DNA of 64,000 nt from Bacteroidota bacterium (GCA_018333525.1 JAGXTF010000059.1:17334-81333), one strand, 5' to 3'; counted from the stretch's first letter, positions 14,884 to 44,915 are shown. Numbers and translations are program-made. Notes: generated from the letters alone by a model not told the origin.

Positions 14884-14898
14884 AACGAAGTATTCAAA

Positions 14899-18499: not shown

Positions 18500-18596
18500 T
18501 TTAAAGCTATAAAATACGCACCAATTCGAAATGAAAATATAGATACATTTTTTGAAACAAAAGTGTACATTTGACAGATAAAATAATTAAATATTT

Positions 18597-21842: not shown

Positions 21843-21900
21843 TTGATGGCTTTATTCTCCGAATTATTTTGTATGTTTGACTGAACTTCAAATTATTGTT

Positions 21901-25092: not shown

Positions 25093-25293
25093 AACCTTAA
25101 GTGAAATTGGATAAACTATTGCGAAATAGAACCTCAAACAAAGAGTCTTAATTGGAACATTTAAATTTCCGGCCGATAAATTCATTAGGGTTTTTTATGG
25201 ATTCGATTTATCTTTGAGTATGTCATTTCCGGAGCTTACAACTTCAGGCAACACTTTATATTTGAACTACGTCCTTCATTCTAACTCCTCTCT

Positions 25294-28200: not shown

Positions 28201-28539
28201 TATCCTCTTACGGATTCCGGTTATCTGGTGAGAATGATTGCACTAACCGCCAGCGGTTGCAGGGATACCTTTGATAAAGTACTTATTGTAGGTACTGGAA
28301 AATACATTTTCGTCCGTTCCATTGAAGGAAAAGAATTTAAAATAGATTCCAGAATAAGCGTATTATCTCCCGAGTATCGCGTTTTACAAACCGATGTATA
28401 TGATGAAAGTGGCAGATTGGTTCATTCATTTTTGAAAAATGAGGGTGTCGATTTGAAAAGTGGTATTTACTTCTATGTCATTTACTTCCAGTCTCCTGAT
28501 GGTCAGATTATGGTTTACAAATCCAAAATTTCCTTATAA
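25294..28539 (+). CDS. large secreted cell-surface protein, paralog 4 (divergent N-terminus, T9SS cargo)
   Basis: Signal peptide. Retains RDCRGIPLSG, CC..GAITTG and TEWRKDKNNKW. Its C-terminal half aligns with paralogs 2 and 3 (KINGNPIIELTD..FCQ, GNYQ/KYTV... and the NPKD...KNTTKIASG block). T9SS CTD. Confidence 0.7.
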   Translation: MRLKLPFLFFLFFVLFNSASLKGSNASGGYWEYSYLGNNKYLLNFGVLRDCRGIPLSGISFGFYAGTNYGNGCKQDTIQGFVLTSMKTVTRYCSSISDPCYPHNSNSTGSGIELLIYSRVVDLNSSKFSSYVGSSACGDITFYANKCCRSGAITTGHDGEDFYVVTTLHTENLSKCINQNNNSGKWLNHFPAIICCATPVFHNFGFTDSTDRDSISYSMAPAQRGIPINSVSYTSPFKYQTPITVYCPGSGGLGCTPNITADPPRGMYLNDKTGDIVFTPVNCTDVATIAVQATEWRKDKNNKWVKIASILYETMVIIKDNCDYNKIPKITGTTSSKICAGDKICLTIDVTDDKFTPYQSVADTVHTSWILPIPNATITVQSDTFPNKEKLEFCWQTTSADTQDFAYQFEIIAHDGSCNVSRESSRAFTIQVQKKDEAKISVSPVQPCNNITLQASTLRYKESTPTFEWIVTDSLTGKKIFGGNKSTEFISYLQKGGYKITLRTTSVKFCYPDVVQYISIRDSLPTVTLQRGIQVCTQQKFNILAVTSNAKNPITYTWTFPGGIDSTGFKDNYNLIYSDTSTIRIQATDSNGCIMKDTAAVIVWELPKIAWISDPLNTRCHDYGDFNLDPLLIEPFSGLRTNSNFRIYGSLTKFGAYGLVDSIKPDEHYFRTTKINNALELSSGKSVTETITAWFRDTNGCENSATTKQKINGNPIIELTDKTFCQNMLGEITADSFVIKPKIKFGAQYTWTAVTCPSGVNLKDVFTNPSLNEYYFQGGSKGVNTFAGEYILRLKIVDLLTGCTDSESNKVTLLSEPVMDTFSHKGVCVNGSAVDLTKLFKSNGNPVTVGESNFRITAFNGDTNSTFYKNIVLKNGYIFPTNVPWGKYTVLCTNRSTGCDASTLNYILIRPLPQAEFTTNPKDTAPKNLPYFVTKNTTKIASGENMTFEWYTKFPSLSDKSTAFEPVITYPLTDSGYLVRMIALTASGCRDTFDKVLIVGTGKYIFVRSIEGKEFKIDSRISVLSPEYRVLQTDVYDESGRLVHSFLKNEGVDLKSGIYFYVIYFQSPDGQIMVYKSKISL

Positions 28540-28552
28540 CCTTCCATTATTT

Positions 28553-30091
28553 ATGAAACATTTTAATTCCGGATTTATTCCAAAATTTATTTTGCTTTGC
28601 GTTTTTGCAGTATTCATTAAGGCAAACGGAAGCCATATGATGGGGGCAGATATGCAATATAAATGCCTTGGAAATGGCATGTATAAAATTACAGCAAAAC
28701 TCTATCGAGACTGCCGGGGAATTCCATTAAACGGCCCTACTTTTGGTGTGTTCGCTGGAAACAACGGCGGCAACTCCTGTGGCAATTATTCGCTCATTTT
28801 TAACCGAATTTCCATCAGAGACGTTACGCCAATCTGCGACTCACTTTCTGCCCCCTGTAATCCGCAGAACACCACCAGCAAAGAAGGTGTGGAAGAACAT
28901 ATTTATGAAGCCATCGTTAATTTTAAAACAACTCCACTTAGCAATTTCTGGAATAATTCTTCTTGTTGCAATGTTACCTTTTATGTAGGACAATGCTGCA
29001 GGAATGGAGCAATTACCACCGGACCTGCAGGCAATGATTTCTATACTACCTGTTTAATTAATTTGTGCAGTCTGGATTCCACCCAATGCAATTCGAGTCC
29101 TTCTTTAACCAATATTCCCATCATTTTTCATTGCTGCAACACTCCTTACCGCTATAATATTGGTGCATTGGATTCTGCAGAAAATGATTCCCTTTCATAC
29201 AAACTGGTGGGAGGAATTGGAAGTTTACCCAATGCTTCTGTAACCTATACCAATCCATTTAGCTTTGACCATCCGCTTTCCGTTTATTGTCCGGGTGGAG
29301 GAATTACCTGTACACCCAATCCGAATGCGACGATACCTGAAGGCTTTTTTCTGGATTCTGCAAATGGAGATATGGTATTTACCCCTGTAAAATGCGATGA
29401 AGTTGGAATTATTGTTGTTGAAATCACGGAGTGGCGAAATGTAAGCGGAACCTGGAAAATGCTCGGAAAAAACCGCCGAGATATTCAGGTTTTATTTAAA
29501 GATTGTGGAAATAATATGCCGCCACAAATAAGCGGTCAAAAAACACATAGGATGTGTGAAGGCGATTCTATTTGTTTTGATATTTTAGCCATTGACAGAA
29601 ATGATACCTCTTCTACCTCAGGAGATACTGTAACCCTGGATTGGAACAATGGAATTCCGGGTGCAAGTTTCACTATTAAGAACCCACAATCTAAGGATAA
29701 GGAAGCCAGATTTTGCTGGGTTGCACCAATTGGTTCATCCCGTGCCAATGCCTATACATTTACAGCCCATACCGTGGATAGAAATTGTCCGATTAAAAGT
29801 GAGTCTTATGTTGGCTTTAAAATTTATGTAGACCAATGTAATACCGGTACCAATAAATTATCGGGCAAGACAGCAATTCGGATTTATCCAATGCCTGTTA
29901 GTTCCGGTAATTTCATCCAACTGCAACCTGAATATTCAGGGAAATACGAAATTCTATCGATTTCAGGCCAGATTATTTATCACGGCAGGGCGGAAATAAC
30001 CAAAGGAATTTGGGTTCCATCGGAAGTAAAGTCCGGAATTTATTCCATTCAAATGGAATCAGGTCCCAGGTTCAAAATAGTTGTAGATTAG
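28553..30091 (+). CDS. short paralog 5 (512 aa) of the same family: N-terminal Cys-rich domain fused almost directly to a type-A-like T9SS CTD
   Basis: ATG at 28553 (MKHFNSG...). SHMMGADMQYKCLGNG..RDCRGIPLNG..GNNGGNSCG..CCNVTFYVGQCCR. C-terminus IYPMPVSSGNFIQL...KSGIYSIQM is type-A-like. The ORF-track start at 28460 overlaps the previous gene and is rejected. Confidence 0.65.
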   Translation: MKHFNSGFIPKFILLCVFAVFIKANGSHMMGADMQYKCLGNGMYKITAKLYRDCRGIPLNGPTFGVFAGNNGGNSCGNYSLIFNRISIRDVTPICDSLSAPCNPQNTTSKEGVEEHIYEAIVNFKTTPLSNFWNNSSCCNVTFYVGQCCRNGAITTGPAGNDFYTTCLINLCSLDSTQCNSSPSLTNIPIIFHCCNTPYRYNIGALDSAENDSLSYKLVGGIGSLPNASVTYTNPFSFDHPLSVYCPGGGITCTPNPNATIPEGFFLDSANGDMVFTPVKCDEVGIIVVEITEWRNVSGTWKMLGKNRRDIQVLFKDCGNNMPPQISGQKTHRMCEGDSICFDILAIDRNDTSSTSGDTVTLDWNNGIPGASFTIKNPQSKDKEARFCWVAPIGSSRANAYTFTAHTVDRNCPIKSESYVGFKIYVDQCNTGTNKLSGKTAIRIYPMPVSSGNFIQLQPEYSGKYEILSISGQIIYHGRAEITKGIWVPSEVKSGIYSIQMESGPRFKIVVD

Positions 30092-30213
30092 AACTACAGC
30101 AGGCATTACAATATTTTCTGAGATATGGGGTTATTACAGAATCCTGTAAAATCCACGTCCGGTTGAAAAACCGCGTTAGGGAAATCCACGGGTGAACCTA
30201 TTTTTGCGCCTGA

Positions 30214-31131
30214 TTGAGTATTGAAGTTACAAATCTCACCAAAAAATATGGCGATCAAGTCGCTGTAAACCATATTTCATTTCAAGCCGGGAAAGGCGAA
30301 ATTGTTGGTTTTTTGGGCCCCAACGGTGCAGGTAAAAGCACCACCATGAAAATACTTACCTGCTTTATTCCGCCAACGGAAGGAACCGCAAAAGTTTGTG
30401 GTTTTGATATAGGCGAAAAGAGCATAGAGGTGCGAAAACATGTGGGATATCTTCCGGAACATAACCCACTATATCTGGAAATGTATGTGAAGGAATACCT
30501 GCGTTTTGCTGCAGAATTGGGAAAAACAAAGAATCCGGCACAACGTGTAAAAGAAGTGATTGCATTGACAAGGCTTGAAAGTGAACAACACAAGAAAATC
30601 AGGCAATTGAGTAAAGGTTATCGCCAAAGGGTTGGCCTTGCACAAGCCATTATTCATGATCCAGAAGTATTGATTTTGGATGAACCAACCAGCGGACTGG
30701 ATCCGAATCAGGTAATTGAAATCCGCGACCTGATTAAAAACCTGGGAAAAGAAAAGACCATTATGATTTCCACCCATATTATGCAGGAAGTGGAAGCCAT
30801 TTGCGATCGCGTAATTATTATTGACAAAGGAAATATCGTAGCTGATGATACCCTTGAAAATTTGAGAAACAGCGCGGCCGGCAAGGTGATTATACGGATA
30901 CAGTTTGCAGAAAAAATGGATGCTGAAAAAATAAAATCCATTCCCAATTGTGACAAGGCAACCGAAACCGAAAATAATACCTGGTTATTGGAGTCTGCCG
31001 ATTCGGCTTTCAGACAGCAGGTTTCACAATTCGCGCTCAAAAACAATTACGAAGTTTTGGAATTGGTTTCAGAGAAAAATACACTGGAAGAAATTTTTAG
31101 AAAATTAACAGGAAATGTGGGTCATCTATAA
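30214..31131 (+). CDS. gldA: gliding motility-associated ABC transporter ATP-binding subunit GldA
   Basis: Walker A GPNGAGKST, signature LSKGYRQRVGLA, Walker B LILDEP. N-terminus MSIEVTNLTKKYGDQ matches GldA-type. Followed by gldF and gldG. TTG start. Confidence 0.8.
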   Translation: MSIEVTNLTKKYGDQVAVNHISFQAGKGEIVGFLGPNGAGKSTTMKILTCFIPPTEGTAKVCGFDIGEKSIEVRKHVGYLPEHNPLYLEMYVKEYLRFAAELGKTKNPAQRVKEVIALTRLESEQHKKIRQLSKGYRQRVGLAQAIIHDPEVLILDEPTSGLDPNQVIEIRDLIKNLGKEKTIMISTHIMQEVEAICDRVIIIDKGNIVADDTLENLRNSAAGKVIIRIQFAEKMDAEKIKSIPNCDKATETENNTWLLESADSAFRQQVSQFALKNNYEVLELVSEKNTLEEIFRKLTGNVGHL

Positions 31132-31843
31132 AAAAGAAATCAGAAGCTTTTTAAGCTCACTCACTGCATTTATTGTGATGGTGGTTTTTCTGATAATTAC
31201 CGGCTTGCTGATGTGGGTTTTCGGTGGAAATACTGTCTTCGATCTCGGCATATCCAGCATGGTGGTAATGTTTAATCTGGCACCATATGTATTTATTTTT
31301 CTGGTATCTGCAGTAACCATGCGCAGTTTCAGTGAAGAAAAAAGATTGGGAACATTGGAAACTTTGAGTACCCGACCCATTTCCGATCTGGGGGTAATAT
31401 TGGGCAAATATTTTGCAAATGTAACTTTGGTCATTTTTGCATTGTTGCCAACACTAATTTATTATTACTCGATAAGCGAACTCGGTGATCCAACCGGGAA
31501 TATAGATACCGGTGCGATGTGGGGTTCTTATTTCGGTTTAATTTTATTGGGCGCTGCGTATACTTCCATAGGAATGTTTGCATCTGCAATTACGGAAAAC
31601 CAAATAGTGGCATTAATTTTAAGCATGCTGATTTGCCTGGTTTCCTATGAAGTTTTGGGCATGGTTGGTGAAATAAAAGCATTGGAAGGAATAGGAAAAA
31701 GCATACACTGGTTCGGATTGGATTTTCATTATTACAGCCTGAGCCGTGGCGTATTGGATACCCGTGACCTTGTCTATTTCATCAGTTTCTCGGGGCTGTT
31801 TATCTGGATTACAAAATTGGTGTACGAAAGCAGAAAATGGTAA
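31115..31843 (+). CDS. gldF: gliding motility-associated ABC transporter permease GldF
   Basis: 242-aa ABC-2-type permease with 6 TM helices. Overlaps the gldA stop and precedes gldG. Confidence 0.75.
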   Translation: MWVIYKKEIRSFLSSLTAFIVMVVFLIITGLLMWVFGGNTVFDLGISSMVVMFNLAPYVFIFLVSAVTMRSFSEEKRLGTLETLSTRPISDLGVILGKYFANVTLVIFALLPTLIYYYSISELGDPTGNIDTGAMWGSYFGLILLGAAYTSIGMFASAITENQIVALILSMLICLVSYEVLGMVGEIKALEGIGKSIHWFGLDFHYYSLSRGVLDTRDLVYFISFSGLFIWITKLVYESRKW

Positions 31844-33612
31844 TGGGAAAAAGGAGAATTTACAAAACACAATCCTGGGTAGAGCTGGCAGTAATGCTGG
31901 TAATATTGGTGATTTTAAATACCCTCGCTGGTTTCTATTACAAACGCTTTGACCTCACAACAGAAAAGCGATTTACGCTTAGTGAAACCAGCAAAAAACT
32001 GGCATCCGCACTTTCGGAAAAATTATATTTTAAATTATATCTGAATGGAGAAATGAGTGGGAATTTCAAACAATTACGCTCAGAAATTCAGGATATGGCT
32101 TACGAATTTCGCGAAGCTTCAGGTGGTAAAATAGAAATTGAAGCACTGGATCCATTGAAAGGTAAAGAGGGTTCAGAAAGGGCAAAAATCCTGAATGAAT
32201 TTGTTCAAAAAGGCATTGAACCGAAAAGCGATATTGAAGATGAAAACGGCGATGAAACCAGAATTCGCGAATTGATTCCGGGTGCAGAATTCAACTATAA
32301 AAACAATACATTTTATGCCAATTTTTTTGAATATGATGCCGCGTTGAGTGTTGACGAGAATTTTCAACGAGCCATTGAAAACATTGAATATGAAATGGCA
32401 AATGCGCTGCGACAGTGCGTTACTGAAAAAACCAAAAGAATTATTGTAGCCGATGGAAATGGGGAAATGATTGATAACCGCGTACAATCTTTTGCCGCAG
32501 AATTACGGAAGTATTACAGTATAGAAGCTGTAAATTTAAATATTGCAGATACCAATGCAGGCAAGCCATTTCTTCAAAAAATGATGGCCAATCCGGACAG
32601 TGCGGAGCTGATATTGATGAACAGTTTGCAGCGGAGATTAAATCTGGCAGATCTGTTAATGATTGTGAAACCGTTGCACGATTATACTCCGGCAGAATTG
32701 TTTTTAATTGACCAGTTTCTGATGCAGGGTGGACGTGTTTTGTGGATGGTGGATCCTGTGCATATAGAGATAGACAGCTTTGAAAACAACGAATCTCAGG
32801 TAGCATTGGATTATGGACTGGAGAATATCAACAGCATGCTCAATACCTATGGCGTATTGTTTAACAATGATTTGCTTCTGGATGCCATGTGCAACCGGAT
32901 TCCCTATATGGAACAAGGCAGAATGCGCATGATTAACTGGTGGTATTTCCCTTTGTTTACCGATAAAAATGAGGCACATATTATTACCAAAAATGTAGGT
33001 GCGGTCTGGTCACAATTTCCATCTACATTAAAAATAAAACCGAGAAAAGAAATCAATACCATTCCACTTCTTACCAGTTCTGCGCGAAGTAAGGTTGTAA
33101 ATACACCTGCAACAGTGGAAATGACCAAGGTAATTATGCAGCAAACTCCCGAATATTTACAACAATATCTGGCTACTATGAATGCCGGGCCAAAAACAAC
33201 CGGGGTGCTGTTGGAAGGCAATTTTAATTCTGCTTTTGCCAATCAAAAACGCTTTACGGATATTCCATTTAAGAAATCGGGTAAAAGTAAAATGGTAGTT
33301 ATTGCAGACGGAGATTTAATACGCAATCAGGTGAGTTCCAGAGGAGGAAATTATCCAACTGGTTTTGACCGTTTTAACCGCATGACTTTTGCCAATAAAA
33401 AATTCATGCTGAATTGTATTGATTACATGATTGATGATAATGGCCTGATAGAGATACGAGGTAAGGAAATCGGGCTCCGCTTGCTGGATAAAACCAAAAT
33501 CAAAACGGAGAAATTATTCTGGCAGCAGGTCAATATTCTGGTGCCAATTGGTATTGTGCTCCTATTTGGCGCTACTAATTTCTGGATAAGAAAACGGAAA
33601 TACGCCAGGTAA
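31837..33612 (+). CDS. gldG: gliding motility-associated ABC transporter accessory/substrate-binding protein GldG
   Basis: 591 aa, with an N-terminal TM helix, a large external domain and a C-terminal TM helix (ILVPIGIVLLFGATNFWI). Overlaps the gldF stop. Canonical gldAFG order. Confidence 0.75.
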   Translation: MVMGKRRIYKTQSWVELAVMLVILVILNTLAGFYYKRFDLTTEKRFTLSETSKKLASALSEKLYFKLYLNGEMSGNFKQLRSEIQDMAYEFREASGGKIEIEALDPLKGKEGSERAKILNEFVQKGIEPKSDIEDENGDETRIRELIPGAEFNYKNNTFYANFFEYDAALSVDENFQRAIENIEYEMANALRQCVTEKTKRIIVADGNGEMIDNRVQSFAAELRKYYSIEAVNLNIADTNAGKPFLQKMMANPDSAELILMNSLQRRLNLADLLMIVKPLHDYTPAELFLIDQFLMQGGRVLWMVDPVHIEIDSFENNESQVALDYGLENINSMLNTYGVLFNNDLLLDAMCNRIPYMEQGRMRMINWWYFPLFTDKNEAHIITKNVGAVWSQFPSTLKIKPRKEINTIPLLTSSARSKVVNTPATVEMTKVIMQQTPEYLQQYLATMNAGPKTTGVLLEGNFNSAFANQKRFTDIPFKKSGKSKMVVIADGDLIRNQVSSRGGNYPTGFDRFNRMTFANKKFMLNCIDYMIDDNGLIEIRGKEIGLRLLDKTKIKTEKLFWQQVNILVPIGIVLLFGATNFWIRKRKYAR

Positions 33613-33818
33613 GCTGCGGTTTCCACAAGTGCATTCCGGTATTTTAATACCCAATCGAAATAATCCCAGTATTTTTTTAATATTATTCTGTGGAAAGCCA
33701 TATTTGATAATGGCTGATTTTATCGATTACAGTAAATGCTGTCTCCACTGACCAAATAATGACAATCCCGGTGAAATATTACATGTCATAACCCGTTATT
33801 GTATCTTCGCATGGTTAC

Positions 33819-34421
33819 ATGTACGATTTTATTCGCGGCAACATTGAAAGAATTAGCCCAACTCACGTTGTATTGGAGAACAACGGTGTAGGTTACCTCA
33901 TGAGCATCAGCATTTACACATACGAAAAGATCAAATCTGCCAAGCAGGCTATGCTCTTTACCGAACAGGTTTTCAAAATCGAAAACCAAAGTCCGGTGGC
34001 CACATTGCTGTTTGGATTTGCCGAACCAAACGAAAGAGAGATGTTCCAATGGCTTACTTCTGTAAGCGGGGTAGGCAATAACACAGCAATTCTGATGTTG
34101 AGCAGCCTGGATCCTGAAGCCTTGTCATCCGCAATTCTCAACGGCAATGTTGGGTTGTTGAAGAGTATCAAAGGTATTGGAGAAAAGACAGCCCAGAGGA
34201 TTGTATTGGAATTGCGGGACAGGCTTGGAGGAAAAGCGCGCAAAGGGGCAACGCTTTTGCCACAGGGAATGTCTGATTATACAGCTGAAGCACTGGCTGC
34301 ATTAACCACGCTCGGATACAACAGAGCTGCCGCAGAAAAGGCACTTAACAAGGTAACGGAGAATGGAAAATTACAGTTATCTGTTGAAGAACTGATAAAA
34401 AATTCACTTAAAATCCTTTAA
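33819..34421 (+). CDS. ruvA: Holliday junction branch migration protein RuvA
   Basis: MYDFIRGNIERISPTHVVLENNGVGY..., with HhH motifs (GIGEKTAQRIVLEL) and a C-terminal RuvB-interaction domain. Confidence 0.9.
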   Translation: MYDFIRGNIERISPTHVVLENNGVGYLMSISIYTYEKIKSAKQAMLFTEQVFKIENQSPVATLLFGFAEPNEREMFQWLTSVSGVGNNTAILMLSSLDPEALSSAILNGNVGLLKSIKGIGEKTAQRIVLELRDRLGGKARKGATLLPQGMSDYTAEALAALTTLGYNRAAAEKALNKVTENGKLQLSVEELIKNSLKIL

Positions 34422-34484
34422 TTGCAAGTTTCCCATAAATAAGTCCATCTGAGAAAATCTATACGCAACAACGGTTAATTAATA

Positions 34485-37400
34485 ATGCATTTTTTAAGAG
34501 CGAAATTTTTGAAAGAAAGAAAAATTTCCGCATCAGGATTTTTATTTTTTTGCGCACCGGTAATTGCGTTAATCCTCTTTCCTACAGACATATTTGGACA
34601 GTCTGATGAGGATAGTACCAAGCTGAAATATAATATTTCCCCAACCAAGAAATGGGAAAAGCCGAAACCCGCTACCAATATTGATCTGTCAAATCCACTC
34701 ATGAAAGAGTGGAAATACAATCCCAAAACCAACAGATACGAGGAATACCAGACATTCGGGGGTATCTCCTATCCCACCGGCAACAGCATGTCGGTTATGG
34801 ATTTTTATAAAAAATTAAATCGCGAAAACCAGGAAGGCTACCTGCGTGAAAAGACCCAAAACACCAGCTACAGCCTTAACAGCAAAGGAAAAGGCAGCAT
34901 TACCGAATATGTGAAAGGGGAGTTGAATAATCCCACTATATCCAAAATATTTGGTGAAGGTGGGGTGGATTTCCAACTCAGTGGATCTGCCATGATAAAG
35001 CTGGGAGGAAACTGGAATGTAAACCGCAATCCAAGCTTCTCCAAAAGACAACAGCGATATTTTGTACCGGTTTTTGACCAGCAACTTCAAATTAGTGCCA
35101 ATGGAAGCATCGGTCAATTTGTGAAACTCGGAATCAATTACGACACAGAGGCGGCTTTTGACTTTGACAATCAAACAAATTTGGGCTGGAAAGGCAAACC
35201 GGATGGCATTTTAAAAGATGTTCAGATTGGAAATGTAAGTCTGAATCTTCCAACCCAATTAATTAAACCGACCAACAACCTTTTCGGCATATCCAATACT
35301 CTGGTTTTTGGAAATACTACCATAAAATCCGTGTTCTCCCAAAATAAAGGGCAGAGCACAGAAACAGTATTAAAAGGTGGTGCTCAGTTGAATGAATTCC
35401 GCATTACTGCTGACAATTACGACCAAAATCGCCACTATTTTCTGGCCCAATATTTTAGAGATAATTACAACAAGTCACTGGAGAATATGCCAAATATCCC
35501 CAGTAATGTGATTGTGAATCGTGTAGAAGTATGGATTACAAACCGAAATGCGAATGTGGAAACCCCAAGGGATATACTGGCTTTTCAGGATCTAGGGGAA
35601 TCGTCACCTTATCGCACCCAATTGGGAGGCAACGCAGATCCGTTACCGGATACATCTTCCAATATCATATTTGAGAAGTTGCGGCAATTCCCCAAAACCA
35701 GAAATATTGGAACCGCAATAGATGAAGTATACAAAGCATTTCCATATTTTGAACAGTCCGTGGATTTTGATATGCTCAATTATGCCAGGCAGCTGAGCAA
35801 AACAGAGTTCACATTCAGCCCCCAACTCGGTTATATTTCGTTGAATCAGCCATTGAATAATGATGAGATTCTGGCCGTGGCTTATGAATATTCCTATAAT
35901 GGAAAAGTGTATCAGGTAGGTGAATTTTCAAGGGATATTCCCCCTGGAAATCAAAAACTTTTGTATCTTAAAATGTTGAAAGGCAACACCATCAGAACCA
36001 AACTGCCCATGTGGAATTTGATGATGAAAAACATTTATTCCCTAAACAGTTATAGCCTGTCTCTCGAAGATTTTAAACTGAATGTAATTTATGCCGATGA
36101 TACCAGTGGTGCGGATTACAACTATCTGCCGGTGAAAGATGTGGGCGCGTTTAAAAATGGGAATCCGTTGATTCGCGTATTGGGATTGGACAAGCTGAAC
36201 AGGCAGATGGAAGCGAAACCCGATGGAATTTTTGATGCCTTTGAAGGGATGACCGTACAAACCCAGTATGCCAGAATAATTTTTCCGGTTACAGAACCTT
36301 TTGGAGATTATTTGAGAAGTCAGTTTGACGGTAATACGGATTTGGCGGATTATTATGCTTTTGATGCCCTTTATGACAGCACGAAATGGCTTGCTGCTCA
36401 GGATGTAAAACACAACAAATACTTTCTGACAGGAAGCTATAAAAGCCCCAATGGGGCAGAAATATTTTTGGGAACGACCAACCTGCAAAAGGGCTCTGTA
36501 CGCGTGACTGCCAATGGTCGACCGCTTACAGAGGGTATGGATTATGAAGTGGACTATGCATTGGGCAGAGTCCGGATTCTGAATCAGGGACTCTTACAGG
36601 GAGGTGCGGAAATACGCGCCAGTGCTGACGGTCAGTCTTTTTTTAACATTCAACAGAAAACATTGATTGGCGGAAGGGTGGATCACAAATTCAACAACAA
36701 ATTGTTGGTAGGTGCCACCATGCTCCACATGTATGAAAGACCACTTACTTCCAAAACGAACTTCAATGAGGAACCACTTCTGAATACCATTTTTGGTGCG
36801 GATTTGGCTTATAGCAGCAAAAGCCGATTTATTACCAGAATGGTGGATAAACTGCCATTTCTTGAAACAAAGGAAGTATCCAATATTACGGCATATGCAG
36901 AATTTGCCAAGATTATTCCGCACAATCACAAATCCCAGGGCGGGCAACGCGGGGTTTCGAATCTCGATGATTTTGAAAATGCTGAATTGCCCAATGATTT
37001 TAAAATGGTTTCGAACTGGGTTTTGGCCAGCGTACCTCTAAAACAACCGGATTTATTCCCGGAAGTGGGCAATGAAGACAAGCGAACCTGGCTGAATCGC
37101 GAAGCCAAATTATCTTTTTATACGATTGACCCCCTATTCTTCCGGGACAATGATATGCCTTCCAATATCAAAGGCAGAGTGGATGAAATTCTGAGCAATC
37201 ATTATATGCGTCAGATTGACCAGCGAGAAGTATTTCCGCAGCGCCAGTTTCCCAATGGAACACCTACCATTTTACCAACTTTGGATATCGTATTCCACCC
37301 CGAACGAAAAGGACAATACAATTTAAATTCCAATGTTGGTGAAGTAGATGCAAATGGGAATCTGACTGAACTCACCAAGAGCTGGGGTGGTATGATGCGG

Positions 37401-40400
37401 CGTGTGGATCAGAATGATTTCGAAGCTGCCAATATCGATTATATTGAAATATGGATGATGGATCCGCTTATCGACAATCCGAATCTGAAAGGTGATTTTT
37501 ATATCAATTTAGGAAGTATAAGCGAAGATGTGTTGCCCGATAGAAGGAAGTCATTTGAAAATGGATTGCCAACAGATGGTTCTACCGACAAAACAGACAC
37601 TACTGCATCAGCTATTGTACCATCAGTTCCTCAAATCAATTACGCATTTAATAACGATCCGGCATCTGTAAAAACCCAGGATGTGGGATTGGATGGGATG
37701 AATGACGACCAGGAAAGACTCATTCTGGACTCGTTTTATTTGCAAAGAATTGCTTCCAATTTTGGCACAGGTTCCAGTTTTTATGTGAATGCGCAAAACG
37801 ATCCATCAGGAGATAATTTTGCCCATTATCTGGAAGATAGTTTTGTAGGTCTGGATTACGATGTTATACAACGTTATCAATATTTTCAGGGACCTCAGGG
37901 AAATTCCAGCCCCGATAAATTCAACACCGCTCCATATACGGGAATGCCGAAATCCTCCACTACCCAACCCAATGATGAGGATGTAAACCGGGATTTCACC
38001 ATGAACCAAAGTGAGGATTACTACCAGTATAGAATAAAAATCAGCGCAGCAGATTTGCAAATCGGAAAAAATTATGTGGCAGATATTGTTCATAATTCTG
38101 TTACGCTTCGCAATGGTAAAAATTCTGAAATTAAATGGTACCAATTAAAAATTCCTATTCGCCAATATGAAAAAGCTGTAGGAAATATCAGTGATTTTAA
38201 GAGCATTCGTTTTATGCGGATGTTCATGACTAATTTCAATGGTACAGCGGTTATGCGTGTTGGATATATCAACATGGTTCGTGCAGATTGGCGGAGATAT
38301 ACCAATTCATTAAAAAATCCGGGAATTATTGTTCCATCTGATCCTAATGATGGGACTAAATTTATTGTAAGTACAGTGAACCTGGAAGAAAACAGCCTTC
38401 GCGCTCCTATTGCTTATGTAACGCCTCCCGGTGTTGTTCGTGTGCAAAATATGGCGAGCTTGGGCACCGTGCTGGAAAACGAGCAATCACTGTCCTTAAA
38501 AGTTTGTGATTTAAAAGCAGGCGATAGCCGTGCTGCATTTAAAACCACTCAAATGGATGCAAGAAACTATAAAAATCTGCAAATGTTTGTGCACGCAGAA
38601 GCATCCAACAATACCAATATTAATGATGGTGAAATTGCTGCATTTGTGCGTTTTGGAACTGACTTAACTTCCAATTATTATGAATATGAAATTCCGCTGA
38701 AACTCACCAGGGGATTTATAAATAAAAACACACCGGGAGCTGATCATGAAATTTGGCCTGATGAGAATTTTATTGATATCGCATTTGAAGCATTCTACAA
38801 CCTGAAAATGGATAGAATGAATGCGAACTGGCCAATGACCGCTCCATATAAAAAGCCAGGTGGCAGAGGTACTGTTTCAGTTATGGGGTTACCCGATGTT
38901 GGAAATATTCGGGTGATGATGGTGGGAATTAAAAACAACAGTTCTGCAAACCAGTGTTTTGAAGTATGGTTTAATGAATTGCGCGTAAAAGATATTGCGA
39001 ATAAAGGTGGCTGGGCCGCATTGGGAAATGTTCAGGCACAGCTCGCAGATTTTGGACAATTAAATTTGGCTGGAAGCATCAGAACCATTGGATTTGGAGA
39101 TGTAGATAAGAAGCTGAACCAGCGCAGTTTAAGCACCAACATGAATTATGATATCGCCAGTAACCTGGAACTGGGTAAATTTTTCCCCCAGAAAAAAGGT
39201 GTTTCTGTACCCATGTATATTGGTTATTCTGAAAGTTATGTAAGGCCAAAATTTTATCCCCTGAATCCCGATTTGGAATTGCAAACCTTTTTAGCTTCCA
39301 TTGCTGACCCGGATAAAAAGAAAGAAATACGAAAGGCTGCAGAAGACTATAATTCGCTTTACAGCCTCAACTTTTCAAATGTTCGAATAGCCGCTGCACC
39401 GGGCAGAAAATCTCTGCCATGGAGATTGAGCAATTTCAATGCATCTTATAATTATCAGAAAAATTATAAGCGCAACCAGCAAATCGAAGAATTTTTCAGC
39501 AAGACAACCGTACTGCAATTGGGATATAATTACGCCATTCCCACGAAATCTATTATGCCATTTAAAAAGTTGAAACCCAAATGGCTGAATCCGGTGCGGG
39601 AATTCAATTTCAATTTACTTCCGTCCAATATTAGTACCAATTGGAAAGTTTCCAGATATTACAGCGAAACACAATCGAGAAATAATAATTCTTTCAGACA
39701 AGTAAATCCGAGATTGTATGATAAGAATTTCTTTATGGACAGGATTTATAATTTCACCCTGCCATTAACAAGTTCAATCAACATTTCATACAATGCCACT
39801 GCAACTTCGCGCATACAGGAGCCATATGGTGCATTAAATTCAGAAGCCAAGAAAGACTCCGTAAAAACTGAATTGTTCTCACTGGGAAGACCCAAATCCT
39901 TTAATCAGACATTTACTGCAAGCTATCAATTGCCATTTGCCAAGTTTGCACGATTGAGCTGGATTACTACCAATATCACGTATACAGGAAGTTATCAATG
40001 GATGCAAGCTCCACCAGCTTTGGCATTTCTCGGCAATACCATTCAGAATGGCAGGGATATAAACCTGAGTACCACATTCAATTTTCAACAATTGTATATG
40101 AAAATTCCGTGGTTGAGAAATTTGGAAAAGCCTATTCCCACAAGGAATCCATTAAAACCATCGCCCAAGAAACCGGAACCTAAAAAAGAGGGAGATGAAG
40201 ATGAAAAACCAGCGCCAAAACCTAAAAATAGCCCTGCTAAAATTTTTGCCGGTAATTTTATCATGATGTTTAAGAATGCCAGCCTGAATTATTCTAAAAA
40301 AGAAGGAACAGAATTGCCGGGATTTATTTACAGACCGGATTATTTTGGTTATAATTTCCTTCACAAGGAACCTGGCATTCCATTTATTTTGGGTTGGCAG

Positions 40401-41618
40401 GATCAGGAAATTCGCTACAAACTGACCAATAGAAATGCGCTTAATCAGGATGTAAGACAATCTAATTTTTACCGCAGCAATTTCACAGAAAACATTTCCG
40501 GAAACATTACGCTTGAACCTATTAAAGGATTTAGAATTCAATTGGACTTCAACAGAAGCAAAACCAATGGTTTGCAAACCCAATATAGATGGGATGGCAC
40601 CAGGTGGATAGATCAGGGATTGACAGAAAACGGTTCCTATTCCATTACTTCAAATTTTATGCGTACCCATTTTGTGAAAGATCAAAATATTGGCGAAGAA
40701 CATCCGAATCAAAACTTCAAAAATTTTCTTGACAACAGATATTCCGTTGCACAGAAACTGATGTTTAACGATCAAAGGGTAACAGAAAAACGCGAGGATA
40801 CCATTACGAAGTTCCCAATTGGATATAGCAAAAATTCCCAGGACGTTTTGATAGGTTCCTTTTACAGCACATATTCCGGGAATGCCGCGAGCAAAAACGG
40901 GTTTAGTTTAACGGATGCGAAGGGAATGCCGCTAATACCGCTTCCGAACTGGAATATTAATTACAATGGATTAACTAAGATAAAAGCTCTGGGAAAAATA
41001 TTCACCAATATTACCCTCAAACATGCTTACAACGGCAGGTATATGATAGGCAGTTACACACGCAACCTGACATATAAAAGCGATGCTCTAGTACCGGATG
41101 ACGGTAAAGACTTTATTCCCAAAAACCTGATTGCCGATGCCACCATTTCAGAATCCTTTTCTCCTTTATTTGGATTAAATGTTGCAACCAAAAGTAACTG
41201 GACCCTGGGTATGGAATACAAGCGCTCCAGAATTATTAAATTATTTGCCGGCAGTTTTAATATTACTGAAATCAGAAGTAATGAATGGCAAATTACAGGT
41301 GGATACAGGGTTACAGGTTTAAATTTACCATTTAAACGAAACGGCCACCGTTTGTATTTACCCAATGATTTCCGCTTTGACCTCACTATTGCCATTGCCG
41401 ACAATAGCTCTACTCTGCGTAAAATTGACGAAAATATTAACCGCTATACAGCAGGTATGCGGAACATACAAATTCGCCCATCTGCCACCTATCAGGTAAA
41501 TACTAAAATCAACGTGGCGCTGAAGTATAACAAGGTAATTATGGATCCAAAAATCCAGCAGCAGTATTACACAGCGCTTACAGATTTTGCCATTGAAGTA
41601 CGTTATATACTGAATTAA
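34485..41618 (+). CDS. sprA: T9SS outer-membrane translocon SprA (Sov)
   Basis: 2377 aa with a signal peptide. Huge beta-barrel protein in the conserved ruvA-sprA arrangement. Length and composition are typical of SprA. Confidence 0.9.
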   Translation: MHFLRAKFLKERKISASGFLFFCAPVIALILFPTDIFGQSDEDSTKLKYNISPTKKWEKPKPATNIDLSNPLMKEWKYNPKTNRYEEYQTFGGISYPTGNSMSVMDFYKKLNRENQEGYLREKTQNTSYSLNSKGKGSITEYVKGELNNPTISKIFGEGGVDFQLSGSAMIKLGGNWNVNRNPSFSKRQQRYFVPVFDQQLQISANGSIGQFVKLGINYDTEAAFDFDNQTNLGWKGKPDGILKDVQIGNVSLNLPTQLIKPTNNLFGISNTLVFGNTTIKSVFSQNKGQSTETVLKGGAQLNEFRITADNYDQNRHYFLAQYFRDNYNKSLENMPNIPSNVIVNRVEVWITNRNANVETPRDILAFQDLGESSPYRTQLGGNADPLPDTSSNIIFEKLRQFPKTRNIGTAIDEVYKAFPYFEQSVDFDMLNYARQLSKTEFTFSPQLGYISLNQPLNNDEILAVAYEYSYNGKVYQVGEFSRDIPPGNQKLLYLKMLKGNTIRTKLPMWNLMMKNIYSLNSYSLSLEDFKLNVIYADDTSGADYNYLPVKDVGAFKNGNPLIRVLGLDKLNRQMEAKPDGIFDAFEGMTVQTQYARIIFPVTEPFGDYLRSQFDGNTDLADYYAFDALYDSTKWLAAQDVKHNKYFLTGSYKSPNGAEIFLGTTNLQKGSVRVTANGRPLTEGMDYEVDYALGRVRILNQGLLQGGAEIRASADGQSFFNIQQKTLIGGRVDHKFNNKLLVGATMLHMYERPLTSKTNFNEEPLLNTIFGADLAYSSKSRFITRMVDKLPFLETKEVSNITAYAEFAKIIPHNHKSQGGQRGVSNLDDFENAELPNDFKMVSNWVLASVPLKQPDLFPEVGNEDKRTWLNREAKLSFYTIDPLFFRDNDMPSNIKGRVDEILSNHYMRQIDQREVFPQRQFPNGTPTILPTLDIVFHPERKGQYNLNSNVGEVDANGNLTELTKSWGGMMRRVDQNDFEAANIDYIEIWMMDPLIDNPNLKGDFYINLGSISEDVLPDRRKSFENGLPTDGSTDKTDTTASAIVPSVPQINYAFNNDPASVKTQDVGLDGMNDDQERLILDSFYLQRIASNFGTGSSFYVNAQNDPSGDNFAHYLEDSFVGLDYDVIQRYQYFQGPQGNSSPDKFNTAPYTGMPKSSTTQPNDEDVNRDFTMNQSEDYYQYRIKISAADLQIGKNYVADIVHNSVTLRNGKNSEIKWYQLKIPIRQYEKAVGNISDFKSIRFMRMFMTNFNGTAVMRVGYINMVRADWRRYTNSLKNPGIIVPSDPNDGTKFIVSTVNLEENSLRAPIAYVTPPGVVRVQNMASLGTVLENEQSLSLKVCDLKAGDSRAAFKTTQMDARNYKNLQMFVHAEASNNTNINDGEIAAFVRFGTDLTSNYYEYEIPLKLTRGFINKNTPGADHEIWPDENFIDIAFEAFYNLKMDRMNANWPMTAPYKKPGGRGTVSVMGLPDVGNIRVMMVGIKNNSSANQCFEVWFNELRVKDIANKGGWAALGNVQAQLADFGQLNLAGSIRTIGFGDVDKKLNQRSLSTNMNYDIASNLELGKFFPQKKGVSVPMYIGYSESYVRPKFYPLNPDLELQTFLASIADPDKKKEIRKAAEDYNSLYSLNFSNVRIAAAPGRKSLPWRLSNFNASYNYQKNYKRNQQIEEFFSKTTVLQLGYNYAIPTKSIMPFKKLKPKWLNPVREFNFNLLPSNISTNWKVSRYYSETQSRNNNSFRQVNPRLYDKNFFMDRIYNFTLPLTSSINISYNATATSRIQEPYGALNSEAKKDSVKTELFSLGRPKSFNQTFTASYQLPFAKFARLSWITTNITYTGSYQWMQAPPALAFLGNTIQNGRDINLSTTFNFQQLYMKIPWLRNLEKPIPTRNPLKPSPKKPEPKKEGDEDEKPAPKPKNSPAKIFAGNFIMMFKNASLNYSKKEGTELPGFIYRPDYFGYNFLHKEPGIPFILGWQDQEIRYKLTNRNALNQDVRQSNFYRSNFTENISGNITLEPIKGFRIQLDFNRSKTNGLQTQYRWDGTRWIDQGLTENGSYSITSNFMRTHFVKDQNIGEEHPNQNFKNFLDNRYSVAQKLMFNDQRVTEKREDTITKFPIGYSKNSQDVLIGSFYSTYSGNAASKNGFSLTDAKGMPLIPLPNWNINYNGLTKIKALGKIFTNITLKHAYNGRYMIGSYTRNLTYKSDALVPDDGKDFIPKNLIADATISESFSPLFGLNVATKSNWTLGMEYKRSRIIKLFAGSFNITEIRSNEWQITGGYRVTGLNLPFKRNGHRLYLPNDFRFDLTIAIADNSSTLRKIDENINRYTAGMRNIQIRPSATYQVNTKINVALKYNKVIMDPKIQQQYYTALTDFAIEVRYILN

Positions 41619-43856
41619 GTGAAAAGTATTTTATTCAGAATTCCGCTATTTATTTTCCTTTTCCCATTGTTTATTGTTGCCCAGGAATTGCCCCTGGGTC
41701 AATGGAAAATGCATCCTTCCTTTTTGGATACCAGGCTTTGTGAAGCAACCGAACATTTTGTATATGGTGCATCTTCCAAGGGCTTTTTTCGCGTAAATAT
41801 TCAAAGTGCAGACATTGAAAGATTAACGGGAATGGATGGTTTCCACGGAAGAGAAATTACATCTTTGGATTATCTGGCAGATAAAAAAATTCTGGTAATT
41901 GGATATGCCGATGGATTTTTAGAATTGCTGAAAAATGAAACCGTAATTGTTGCAATTCCCGGTTTTTACAATGAAATGTTACAGGGCGATAAAAGTATTT
42001 TACATTGTAGTTTTAAAGACAATGATGCTTTGATTTCCACCAATTTCGGAATTTTGGTATTGGATCTCGAAAAGAATGAAATAAGGGAGAATTATAAAGA
42101 TATTGGAACCAACGGACAAACCCAACCGGTAAGGAGCACCGCTGTTTTGGGAGACAGTATTTATGCCGGTATTCCTGATGGAATTATTGCTGCAAAATAT
42201 GCTGTAAACGTTAATTTAAAGAACTTTTTAAATTGGAAAAAAGTTTACTCCAAGGGGCCCGGAAACCAACTTTGCAGCTTTAGCGACAGCATTTATTTTT
42301 ATTCGGACAGCATTGTTTTAACTTATAAAAATGGCGTTGTTTTGAATAGTTTTATACCTGGAAAATCCACGACAAAAAGAATAAAAGTTTTTCAAAACAG
42401 AATTTATTTTTTCAGACCCGGAGCAATAACGAATCAAAAATCAGATGCAAGCAGAACCGTTACCAATATGAATCTCTTATCCTCCGGGACATTGGATGCT
42501 GAGGGCTCTTTGTGGTATTGCACCGGCTTTGGGGGTGGTGCAATTAAATTAATTCCCGGAAGTGAAATTGCATTTGAACCCAATGGTCCAACTTCTAATT
42601 CTGTTTTTGCAATGAGTAAAAAAGGAAATTATTTATTTACTACCGGTGGTGGTGTTACCAATACATTTGGTAACGCATACAATCCGGCTGGATTTTATAT
42701 TTATAATAATTTCCGCTGGAATTCCAACCCTGCATCTGTTTATAATACAGGCTTGTATGATTATACTTTTGTTCATTTCAATACAGTAACAGATAAGTAT
42801 TATTTAGCTACACATACCAATGGAATGCTGGAGTTTAGCGGTGGTGTTGCAACCAACAGATTTGATGACAACAATGCACCTTTTTTTCGCGATCCGGGTT
42901 CGGGATTTATTAGAATCAGTGGTGTTGCAAACGATAAGGAGGGTAACTTATGGGTGAACAATTATGGCGGAGAAAAACCGCTGCTGGTGTATAAAGGTGG
43001 CACCTGGACCGGAATTAAAGTAACGGAATCATCCAGTTTAAAGGCCTTGGTTATTGACGACAATGACTACAAATGGATGATTGTTCAGGGCAATGGTATT
43101 TTGGTTTATGATGACAATAAAACACCAGGCAACGATTTGGATGACAAATCTGCGAGACTTACAACTTCAAACGGTTTAATAACCAATGATGTATTGTCAC
43201 TTCAGGTAGATCAGAATGGTTATGTTTGGATTGGAACCACACAAGGATTAAATGTGGTAACCAATACTGCTGACATTTTTGTGAAGCCCAAAATCGACAG
43301 GTTTATTATTGAACAAAATGGAAGTACAGGATATTTGTTAGGGGAAGAAACCATCAATGATATTTGTACCGATGGTGGAAACAGAAAATGGTTTGCAACG
43401 AATAACGGAGTGTTTTTGGTGGAACCAAACGGACAGGAAGTGCTGCTAAAATTCACTGCGGATAATAGCCCCTTACCGGACAACAGAGTGTATTGCATCG
43501 GGCAGGTATCAAATTCCGGCGAAGTATTTTTTGGTACCGATGCGGGAATTGTATCCTATAGAAGTGACGCCAGCGATGCAGATGAAACATTTAAAAAAAT
43601 AAAAATTTATCCCAATCCGGTACGACCAGGATATAATGGCTTGGTAACTATAGAAGGACTCGCAAAAAATGCGGAAATCAGAATTACCGATGCAGCAGGA
43701 ATGCTAATTTATCAAACCAAGGCAAATGGAGGCACAGCTACATGGCCATGCACCAAACTCGATGGCAGCAAACCTGAAAGTGGCGTCCTTTATGTTTTTG
43801 GCATCAATGAAGAAGGCACAGAAACTGCTATGGGGAAGTTTGTTTTTATAAAATAA
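41619..43856 (+). CDS. PorZ-like T9SS component/cargo: two-component-regulator-propeller repeats plus a type-A T9SS CTD
   Basis: GTG start directly after the sprA stop (TAAGTG). Signal peptide. Repeated Reg_prop-like motifs (VWIGTTQGLNVV, WFATNNGVFLV, VFFGTDAGIVSY). C-terminus KIYPNPVRPGYNGLVTIEGL...GVLYVF is a T9SS type-A CTD. The architecture matches PorZ, which has two beta-propellers and a CTD. Confidence 0.6.
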   Translation: MKSILFRIPLFIFLFPLFIVAQELPLGQWKMHPSFLDTRLCEATEHFVYGASSKGFFRVNIQSADIERLTGMDGFHGREITSLDYLADKKILVIGYADGFLELLKNETVIVAIPGFYNEMLQGDKSILHCSFKDNDALISTNFGILVLDLEKNEIRENYKDIGTNGQTQPVRSTAVLGDSIYAGIPDGIIAAKYAVNVNLKNFLNWKKVYSKGPGNQLCSFSDSIYFYSDSIVLTYKNGVVLNSFIPGKSTTKRIKVFQNRIYFFRPGAITNQKSDASRTVTNMNLLSSGTLDAEGSLWYCTGFGGGAIKLIPGSEIAFEPNGPTSNSVFAMSKKGNYLFTTGGGVTNTFGNAYNPAGFYIYNNFRWNSNPASVYNTGLYDYTFVHFNTVTDKYYLATHTNGMLEFSGGVATNRFDDNNAPFFRDPGSGFIRISGVANDKEGNLWVNNYGGEKPLLVYKGGTWTGIKVTESSSLKALVIDDNDYKWMIVQGNGILVYDDNKTPGNDLDDKSARLTTSNGLITNDVLSLQVDQNGYVWIGTTQGLNVVTNTADIFVKPKIDRFIIEQNGSTGYLLGEETINDICTDGGNRKWFATNNGVFLVEPNGQEVLLKFTADNSPLPDNRVYCIGQVSNSGEVFFGTDAGIVSYRSDASDADETFKKIKIYPNPVRPGYNGLVTIEGLAKNAEIRITDAAGMLIYQTKANGGTATWPCTKLDGSKPESGVLYVFGINEEGTETAMGKFVFIK

Positions 43857-43864
43857 ACATACAA

Positions 43865-44130
43865 CGCTGTTGGTCCTCTTGCCACATTAGCGAAGCATGT
43901 GGCGACCAATGGCATCCTCACTCAAACCTATTACAGCATAGCGCTGTTGGTCCTCTTGCCGCATTAGCGAAGCATGCGGCGACCAACAGCTAATCACTTC
44001 ATTGTATAAGAACTTGTCGTTGGTCGCCTTGCGCTGCGCCGGCAAGGCATGAGGACCAACGACGCTCAGTCGTGCAGTGGCACTGTTGGTCCTCGTGCCA
44101 CATCAGCGAAGCATGCCGCGACCAACAGCT
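43865..44130. repeat. REP/BIME-like cluster upstream of the RAYT gene: four GC-rich ~49-bp palindromic units (types 1,1,2,1)
   Basis: Units at 43865-43912, 43942-43990, 44015-44064 (inverted type) and 44082-44130. Consensus CGCTGTTGGTCCTCaTGCCgCATcAGCGAAGCATGcGGCGACCAACAGC. Each unit is an imperfect palindrome. Confidence 0.8.
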
Positions 44131-44138
44131 TCCTATTC

Positions 44139-44168
44139 GTTTATTTCCGTTTATTTCCGTTTATTTCC
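44139..44168 (+). repeat. perfect tandem repeat (GTTTATTTCC)x3
   Basis: Three exact 10-bp units between the last upstream REP unit and the RAYT start codon. Confidence 0.8.
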
Positions 44169-44201
44169 GGATACAAATTATGTCCAAATTATTATTACCA
44201 A

Positions 44202-44720
44202 ATGAATGAGAAAATCAATAATTTATTTTTCTTTACTGCAACATGTTTAAATTGGAAACATTTGATCCATCAGGATTCTACAAAATTATTTTTAATTAAC
44301 TCTTTGAATTATTATACAGAAAAATCCATTTGCAGAATTTATGGATTTGTAATTATGCCGAATCATATACACTTAATAATTGCAATAAATAATGAACAGC
44401 GGAATTACTTTCAACATTCTTACTTAAAGTTTACAGCACAAACTATTATTGGTGAATGGAGAAATAACAAATCGATATTATTGAATTCCATAAAATCAAC
44501 ACAAGCTGACAGAAAATTCCAATTTTGGGAACGGAATCCAAAATGGAAGTCCATTCAAACGGATGAGAGTTTTTGGAAAACGCTGAGATATATTCATGAT
44601 AACCCAACGCAGGAACACTGGAAATTGGTTGAAAATGCGGAAGATTATATGATGAGTTCAGCTAAATGTTACTTAAAAGGAAATTCTGAATTTACTTGTC
44701 TTACAATCTATTGCCCCTGA
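44202..44720 (+). mobile_element. REP-associated tyrosine transposase (RAYT, IS200/IS605-like Y1 HuH transposase family)
   Basis: HuH motif IMPNHIHLII. Catalytic-Tyr region KTLRYIHDNPTQ, similar to the Y..NP motif of RAYT/IS200 TnpA. 172 aa. Flanked on both sides by REP palindromes. The ORF track starts at 44049, but that stretch is translated REP sequence, so the start is the ATG at 44202. Confidence 0.7.
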
Positions 44721-44728
44721 TAAATTAA

Positions 44729-44915
44729 TGTCGTTGGTCGCCTTGCGCTACGCAGGCAAGGCATGAGGACCAACGACGATACCACTGCACAGCGCTGTTG
44801 GTCCTCATGCCGCATCAGCGAAGCATGCGGCGACCACCAGCTAATTACTTCATTTTATAGGCACCTGTCGTTAGTCGCCTTGCGCTGCGCCGGCAAGGCA
44901 TGAGGACCAACGACG
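44729..44915. repeat. REP/BIME-like cluster downstream of the RAYT gene: three units (types 2,1,2)
   Basis: Units at 44729-44778, 44793-44841 and 44866-44915. The type1-spacer-type2 arrangement with spacer TAAT.ACTTCATT.TATA repeats the pairing seen at 43942-44064. Confidence 0.8.

Follow-up and report, generated by a model that had tools for sequence, protein, structure and literature searches.

Type IX secretion system (T9SS) genes are scattered in the genome of Porphyromonas gingivalis and have no cargo genes adjacent to them (PMC5445135, a review). In this organism, the PorXY/SigP-regulated pair ruvA-sov (PGN_0833-PGN_0832), where sov encodes the translocon, is transcribed polycistronically, at least in part, and SigP, the sigma factor of the T9SS, was seen to bind upstream of ruvA and not upstream of sov (PMC4800418). 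In Flavobacterium johnsoniae, porZ is Fjoh_0707 and sprA is Fjoh_1653; PorZ is a member of the PorQUVZ attachment complex, and PorV is the cargo shuttle (PMC10936215). As for the gliding-associated ATP-binding cassette (ABC) transporter, gldF and gldG constitute an operon in Flavobacterium columnare, and the role of GldAFG in gliding has been described as still largely unknown (PMC5879114). Here we analyzed a 64,000-nt stretch of DNA (the window, from whose first letter all coordinates are counted) that carries the gldA, gldF, gldG, ruvA, sprA and porZ genes of an uncultured Bacteroidia, known from a metagenome-assembled genome (MAG), with the start codon of porZ abutting the stop codon of sprA (Table 1).

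As in P. gingivalis, ruvA immediately precedes the translocon gene in the window, both being on the same strand, but the window adds porZ straight after sprA and gldAFG upstream. The gld and spr genes belong to the same orthologous families as those of Flavobacterium; however, whereas about 950 locus tags separate porZ from sprA in F. johnsoniae, the two are contiguous in the window, and gldA, which is listed apart from the gldFG operon in Flavobacterium, here overlaps gldF. The porZ gene of P. gingivalis (PG1604) lies at a different place in the genome from ruvA-sov, and Hunnicutt and colleagues reportedly found in 2002 that gldA is unlinked from gldFG in F. johnsoniae. No published linkage between sprA and porZ was found in the literature searched. 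An earlier note on this DNA, made from the sequence alone, had regarded the cluster as unusually compact, and this holds when it is set against F. johnsoniae, where porZ is far from sprA, against P. gingivalis with its scattered T9SS genes, and against the 110 distant PorZ loci presented below; it does not hold for the ruvA-sprA part, which is widespread and known to be polycistronic in P. gingivalis. In the window, one uncultured Bacteroidia lineage keeps gliding and T9SS genes adjacent to each other; every component family was already known and only the gene order is new, above all the abutting sprA and porZ genes. In our reading, which we consider quite likely to be correct, this order is a lineage-specific consolidation of standard gliding/T9SS genes that comprises at least two co-directional transcription units.

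The identity of the genes was established by NCBIfam equivalog models with curated cut-offs, with Pfam domains as the second line. SprA scored 2206 bits against TIGR04189 (cut-off 200, residues 72-2376) and 578 bits against SprA_N, and a 100% identical protein at NCBI bears the name cell surface protein SprA; the public SprA entry (2369 aa) begins 8 codons past the first possible start. RuvA, with its three-domain architecture present, reached 173.6 bits (TIGR00084, cut-off 85), GldA 427.9 bits over the full length (TIGR03522, cut-off 402.6) and GldG 453.6 bits (TIGR03521, cut-off 389.85), and GldF passed marginally (293.1 bits against TIGR03518, cut-off 288.5). The six open reading frames (ORFs) and the TAA-GTG junction between the last two, which the earlier note had listed, were all found where it had placed them.

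The TAA stop codon of sprA (41616-41618) is followed with zero spacing by the GTG at 41619. This GTG is the only credible start of porZ because the reading frame opens at that codon, because it is the sole start that yields a signal-peptide-like N-terminus (MKSILFRIPLFIFLFPLFIVA/QE, by inspection; residues 1-23 have a low predicted local distance difference test score, pLDDT), and because residues W29, H32, S52, G55 and L69, all of them 5' of the later start chosen by the public gene caller, are invariant among 21 orthologs. The public start (71 codons late, giving a 674-aa PorZ with 41619-41831 dropped) was rejected, since it removes these conserved residues and the signal peptide. The junction was then compared at nine clade loci (the window, L082, L087, L002, L003 and L088-L091), the distance being taken at each locus to the only porZ start giving a signal peptide. 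Measured from the sprA stop, the porZ start was at 0 nt in the window, +1 in L082, +5 in L087 and +9 in L002, and in L003 and L088-L091 porZ starts with a TTG that overlaps sprA by 26-32 nt. The tightness of the junction, from -32 to +9 nt, was thus observed in 9 of 9 loci, with varying junction sequence and relative frame, and it was kept in L082 despite different flanks on both sides. As there is no space for a promoter between sprA and porZ, porZ would be expressed from the sprA transcript, and its translation would most likely occur by reinitiation of ribosomes after termination at TAA-GTG. In evolutionary terms, porZ would have been appended to the end of an old ruvA-sprA unit, leaving no promoter room between sprA and porZ.

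The extent of this arrangement was assessed in two surveys. In the first one, PorZ loci were sampled from one genome per species and from metagenomes, and the genes of the window were sought around each of them. The 118 loci for which 3 kb or more of sequence upstream of porZ was available comprised 8 from the clade of the window (at least 48% identity to its PorZ) and 110 distant ones (at most 34%). The sprA gene was directly upstream of porZ at 8 of the 118 loci, all belonging to the close clade, and no sprA lay within reach at any of the 110 distant loci; in this sample, the sprA-porZ adjacency is confined to the clade of the window. One clade locus, L002 (CAMBTR010000005.1), presents the clade-specific gldF-gldG-ruvA-sprA-porZ array and a PorZ with 48% identity to that of the window, as against about 30% for other Bacteroidota, and its Chryseobacterium gleum label looks wrong. 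The second survey was anchored on SprA, and ruvA was located directly upstream of sprA on the same strand at 6 of 8 outgroup SprA loci. The ruvA-sprA-porZ order, with different flanks on both sides, was observed in L082 (SprA 60% identical), ruvA-sprA without porZ in L171 (55%) and in four loci with SprA of 44-45% identity, and neither ruvA nor porZ in two loci with SprA of 48-49%. The ruvA-sprA adjacency is, hence, widespread and not special to the window.

The gldA, gldF and gldG genes overlap each other by the 17 and 7 nt that the earlier note had reported, as was confirmed by reading the junctions. The TTG start of gldA has a TGA stop immediately 5' of it. The 7-nt overlap between gldF and gldG is measured from the first ATG of gldG and becomes 1 nt (TAATG) when the second ATG, at 31843, is taken, the start to which the 589-aa product of the public gene caller points. 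These three genes for ABC transporter subunits would form a first unit whose overlapping stop and start codons would link translation. In L166, L167 and L168, where SprA is 69-78% identical, an ahpC-like gene, a ferritin gene, three of the paralogous genes described below, gldA, gldF and gldG follow in this order, and the gldA/gldF overlap is identical; the L166 and L168 loci extend to ruvA and sprA, and that of L167 stops inside gldG, although its contig also bears sprA and porZ homologs. Because the 17-nt overlap recurs in these three relatives and the abutting sprA-porZ in all clade loci compared, the arrangement is more than chance.

The spacer between gldG and ruvA is 206 nt in the window, 108 nt in L166, 4 nt in L002 and 2 nt in L003 and L089-L091, and there is no such link in L082; the joining of gldAFG to ruvA is, as judged from these loci, a variable trait of a sub-clade. 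The 206-nt gap carries a two-part promoter-like motif, AATA-N15-CGTTAT, which is its only match in the window when both strands are scanned. The same motif is present 5' of ruvA in L166, L168 and L082 with equal spacing and position and with different N15 bases (the L168 copy was found by alignment only, the pattern scan having taken an upstream called start as its anchor), and the sister sub-clade loci with a 2-4-nt gldG-ruvA spacer lack it. We infer that it is a putative ruvA-proximal promoter. An inverted repeat brackets the first half of the motif (33753-33799), with ATGACA/TGTCAT in the window, ATGACAG/CTGTCAT in L168 and ATGCA/TGCAT in L082; its letters vary among loci and its self-complementarity is kept, and it may represent an operator or a hairpin. 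The 63-nt spacer between ruvA and sprA has no TAnnTTTG, the Bacteroidota -7 motif. Because the 206-nt gap contains this conserved promoter-like motif, gldAFG and ruvA-sprA-porZ are probably separate transcription units in the genome of the window. Consistent with this view, L082 harbors ruvA-sprA-porZ without gldAFG, and in L168 three genes, one of them on the reverse strand, are located between gldG and ruvA. The second unit would comprise ruvA-sprA-porZ, probably driven from a promoter within the gap. This proposal matches the P. gingivalis ruvA-sov locus, since SigP binds there upstream of ruvA and not of sov, and the architecture of the motif recalls promoters of extracytoplasmic function sigma factors, which fits the SigP precedent and offers a lead.

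Several observations weigh against the reading of two or more units in a conserved consolidation. The operon boundaries, the co-transcription and the coupling are deduced from spacing and conservation, and a GTG start with zero spacing falls short of proving reinitiation. A scan for sigma-70 promoters between 29900 and 45000 gave 55 sites versus 43.6 +/- 7.8 in shuffled controls, and a scan for intrinsic terminators in the same region gave 17 versus 13.9 +/- 3.7, i.e. no signal in either case. In the sister sub-clade (L002, L003 and L089-L091, whose fetched flanks end inside gldF), the gldG-ruvA spacing of only 2-4 nt and the lack of the ruvA motif suggest that gldF through porZ may well be one unit, and the two-unit reading may be limited to the sub-lineage of the window genome. 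The locus L166 is collinear with the window far past the cluster (tgt, a porT-like gene, ubiE, hisS, ahpC, ferritin), and this broad collinearity, at about 70% SprA identity, makes the conservation of the block weak evidence of selection. Finally, the sorting domain of PorZ itself scored below the curated thresholds, with 19.9 bits for TIGR04183 (cut-off 23) and 21.9 bits for PF18962 on the last 119 aa (cut-off 27).

It could be argued that the gene order is neutral, i.e. that a chance rearrangement became fixed in one lineage and was kept through the close kinship of the sampled relatives. The synteny of L166 well past the T9SS genes agrees with this explanation, as do the loss of the gldAFG-ruvA link in L082 and its interruption in L168. 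It is also in agreement with L038, an unrelated Bacteroidales MAG (4164-12013) in which gldF and gldG, without gldA nearby, are divergent and about 3 kb from porZ: as this was the only locus with gldFG within 3 kb among the 110, a frequency that a rough estimate puts near chance expectation, a wider gldFG-porZ link was rejected. Nevertheless, the sprA-porZ junction is tight in every one of the nine loci across 60-100% SprA identity while frame, sequence and flanks change, and the zero spacer makes porZ depend on sprA transcription regardless of how the adjacency arose. We regard a purely neutral origin as unlikely.

A second alternative is that the whole stretch, from the five cargo-like paralogs upstream of gldA to porZ, constitutes one co-regulated super-operon, as the earlier note had proposed for the secretion machinery and its cargo. 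In its favor, every gene points the same way, L166-L168 repeat the block made up of the paralogs, gldAFG, ruvA and sprA, and the 2-4-nt gldG-ruvA spacers make a single gldF-porZ transcript plausible in the sister sub-clade. However, the 206-nt gap with its conserved and window-unique motif and a weak terminator-like hairpin 5' of ruvA, the three-gene insertion in L168 with its reverse-strand gene, and the lack of gldAFG beside ruvA in L082 leave the co-regulation as one unit unsupported in the genome of the window. Moreover, TAnnTTTG (background of 0.81 matches per kb on the + strand) overlaps or immediately precedes the listed start codons of paralogs 2 and 3 and is also present 5' of paralog 4 and of gldA, the spacers between paralogs reach 201 nt, and the paralog number differs among relatives, with three genes upstream of gldA in L166-L168 and five in the window. 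According to these motifs, most of the upstream paralog genes would carry their own promoter-like sequences and belong to several separate units. A single machinery-cargo unit is, in our opinion, rather improbable, and at least two units remain the preferred reading.

The upstream array itself did consist of five true paralogs from 15680 to 30091, as the earlier note had assumed. The start of paralog 5 is more likely at about 28553 (MKHF...), which removes an apparent 80-nt overlap with paralog 4, and the public paralog 3 entry (1063 aa) begins 8 codons past its first possible start. A fragment of paralog 1 matched CHU_C with 29 bits (cut-off 27), paralogs 2-4 gave 15-19 bits, below that cut-off, and paralog 5 gave 20 bits with PF18962 and 22.1 bits with TIGR04183 (cut-off 23). 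The C-termini hence resemble the type B (CHU_C) and type A (Por_Secre_tail) domains of the known cargo families, but 4 of the 5 copies stay under the curated cut-offs; paralogs 1-4 are closer in appearance to type B, and only paralog 5 to type A. An hhalign comparison of the paralog C-termini with the C-terminal domain (CTD) of PorZ gave a probability of 67%. Homologs of the N-terminal 600 aa or so of the paralogs almost always end in PF13585 or PF18962, and most of them are either about 1500 aa long, combining PKD repeats with a CHU_C tail, or about 720 aa long, with a Por_Secre_tail. It is reasonable, on this sequence evidence, to view the five paralogs as a T9SS cargo family. Their shared N-terminal region, which opens with the conserved pattern SH..GG.I.Y...G...Y........RDC.G, corresponds to no Pfam family, and a search of the PDB sequences with paralog 2 gave no match; it is an uncharacterized cargo domain family that is widespread in proteins of about 1500 aa, with PKD repeats and CHU_C tails, that are annotated as gliding motility-associated. 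The array is preceded by genes for an AhpC/TSA-type thiol peroxidase and a ferritin-like protein in the window (14347-15542), and AhpC and ferritin genes also lie before the array in L166 (8787-9905), L167 (5842-9422) and L168 (3721-4803).

The sprA and porZ genes share the same reading frame across the TAA (41616-41621), which is probably a coincidence. Nevertheless, this raised the question of whether SprA and PorZ could be made as one fusion protein through read-through of the single TAA, in agreement with the porZ frame opening exactly at the codon past that stop and with L002, where the two genes are also in frame with three codons between them. This possibility was rejected, and we give it practically no credence, because the in-frame relation is not conserved among relatives (L082 at +1, L087 at +5 and the TTG-overlap loci L003 and L088-L091 are out of frame) and because at each locus PorZ has a signal-peptide-like segment of its own at the N-terminus. 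In addition, among the stop codons, read-through is least likely at TAA.

The 745-aa protein encoded after sprA is a PorZ ortholog over its whole length, as indicated by both sequence models and the predicted fold. In a hidden Markov model (HMM) search it scored 505.5 bits against NF052228, whose curated name is T9SS anionic LPS delivery protein (LPS, lipopolysaccharide; cut-off 260, residues 1-745 on model positions 1-757), and 96.1 bits against PF21544, the PorZ N-terminal beta-propeller (cut-off 27, model positions 1-154 of 154). A profile built from 14 members of the family matched the structure of P. gingivalis PorZ (PG1604, 5M11) with E = 1.3e-135 from position 26 to the last residue, CTD included, aligning 5M11 through its CTD up to residue 758. 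The AlphaFold model (mean pLDDT of 86.3, predicted template modeling score, pTM, of 0.77) is all-beta and closes with seven strands (residues 662-743), and its top Foldseek match was again 5M11 (E = 8.4e-46, template modeling score, TM, of 0.69, 766 columns), at 22% sequence identity in the structure-based alignment; PorZ of the clade is about 30% identical to PorZ of other Bacteroidota. The protein thus shares with P. gingivalis PorZ the two beta-propellers and the C-terminal immunoglobulin-like sorting domain, but its genomic context differs, and its function is a predicted one. The type A CTD that the earlier note had assigned to this protein finds support in homology and in the model, though not in its own HMM scores: most clade orthologs have precomputed PF18962 matches, and neither the YPNPV nor the G-x-Y motif varies among orthologs, so that the domain was taken as present. 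Neither membership of an unrelated propeller family nor a missing CTD, the two outcomes that the earlier note had said would speak against PorZ, was found. That the protein might be another double-propeller, such as the sensor domain from a hybrid two-component system or a secreted propeller of unrelated origin, rather than a functional PorZ, is hardly conceivable: the Reg_prop repeat (PF07494) is common to such sensors, and the periplasmic sensors of BT4663-type hybrid systems came next in the Foldseek list, but the protein lacks both transmembrane and kinase domains, its PorZ equivalog score is about twice the cut-off over the full length, 5M11 outdoes the sensors both as a profile match (E of 1e-135 versus 5e-39) and as a fold (TM of 0.69 versus 0.32), and its C-terminal sorting domain and the one of PorZ can be aligned.

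Further features of the window lie outside these genes. The REP-like (repetitive extragenic palindromic) repeats directly past porZ, of which the window contains seven matches versus 0.03 expected and which occur only at this site, surround a gene resembling a REP-associated tyrosine transposase (RAYT), whose listed start overlaps repeat copies and whose real start is probably the ATG at 44202. This cluster marks the 3' edge of the unit, is outside T9SS function and may terminate the transcript; in L082, the sole relative examined downstream of porZ, a methyltransferase gene is found there instead. At the other end of the window, an ORF on the minus strand (1418-2116) encodes a PorT/SprT-like outer-membrane beta-barrel (83.7 bits against NF052311, cut-off 125); the order tgt, barrel, ubiE is also present in L166 (750-3273), and the barrel may be a further T9SS component. 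A gene for a hybrid histidine kinase (1204 aa) followed by one for an RprY-like OmpR-family regulator (240.8 bits, cut-off 370) occupies 56736-61431, and no PorX/PorY-type regulators were recognized within the window. A scan of the whole window at the Rfam gathering thresholds gave no match.

Table 1. Features of the gliding/T9SS gene cluster and its flanks in the window
Feature	Position	Strand	Remarks
Five paralogous secreted proteins, putative T9SS cargo	15680-30091	+	31-45% pairwise identity
Paralog 1 ORF	15680-18499	+	signal-peptide-like N-terminus by inspection
Paralog 2 ORF	18597-21842	+	signal-peptide-like N-terminus by inspection
Paralog 3 ORF	21877-25092	+	signal-peptide-like N-terminus by inspection
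Paralog 4 ORF	25294-28539	+	signal-peptide-like N-terminus by inspection
Paralog 5 ORF	~28553-30091	+	signal-peptide-like N-terminus by inspection
TATTTTTG, match to the Bacteroidota -7 motif TAnnTTTG	30199-30206	+	begins 15 nt 5' of the gldA start; weak evidence
gldA, ATP-binding subunit of gliding-associated ABC transporter	30214-31131	+	TTG start; TIGR03522, ABC_tran
gldF, ABC-2 permease	31115-31843	+	TIGR03518
gldG, auxiliary subunit of the ABC transporter	31837-33612	+	TIGR03521; ABC_transp_aux, DUF7088 (Pfam)
Weak terminator-like hairpin, gldG-ruvA gap	33696-33715	+	weak; site total at shuffled-control level
Two-part promoter-like motif AATA-N15-CGTTAT	33775-33799	+	begins 44 nt 5' of the ruvA ATG
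ruvA, Holliday-junction branch migration protein	33819-34421	+	TIGR00084; RuvA_N, HHH_5, RuvA_C (Pfam)
sprA/sov, T9SS outer-membrane translocon	34485-41618	+	7134 nt, 2377 aa; TIGR04189, SprA_N
porZ, T9SS attachment-complex protein	41619-43856	+	GTG start, 745 aa; two beta-propellers and C-terminal Ig-like sorting domain
Seven ~50-nt REP-like palindromic repeats	43864-44914	both	7 matches; only site in the 64-kb window
RAYT-like tyrosine transposase ORF amid the REP-like repeats	44049-44720		NF047646, 63 bits, cut-off 80

According to the roles described in the literature, SprA would be the outer-membrane translocon, and PorZ would be exported by Sec and then by the T9SS. By analogy, surface PorZ in the PorQUVZ complex would deliver anionic LPS (A-LPS) to the PorU sortase. 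The earlier note had called the protein a PorZ-like shuttle, and this is not so, since the cargo shuttle is PorV and PorZ is the attachment-complex component that delivers A-LPS.

For public annotation, these results provide corrections: the current call shortens PorZ to 674 aa with loss of the signal peptide, and the cargo-like paralogs carry no annotation beyond hypothetical protein. For the biology of the system, the window offers a natural case in which the genes for the translocon and for an attachment-complex component are probably linked in their translation, with no new mechanism implied. Whether the sprA-porZ linkage, together with gldFG joined to ruvA in a sister lineage, reflects a functional tie between GldAFG, the translocon and the attachment step is a speculative idea to which we attach little weight. 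If it were true, PorZ would be made in fixed proportion to SprA, so that the attachment complex would be assembled at or with the translocon, and GldAFG would act in the same pathway, e.g. by exporting a lipid-linked or A-LPS-like anchor that PorZ passes to the PorU sortase. The gene order suggests, as a hint, that GldAFG belongs with the translocon and the attachment step.

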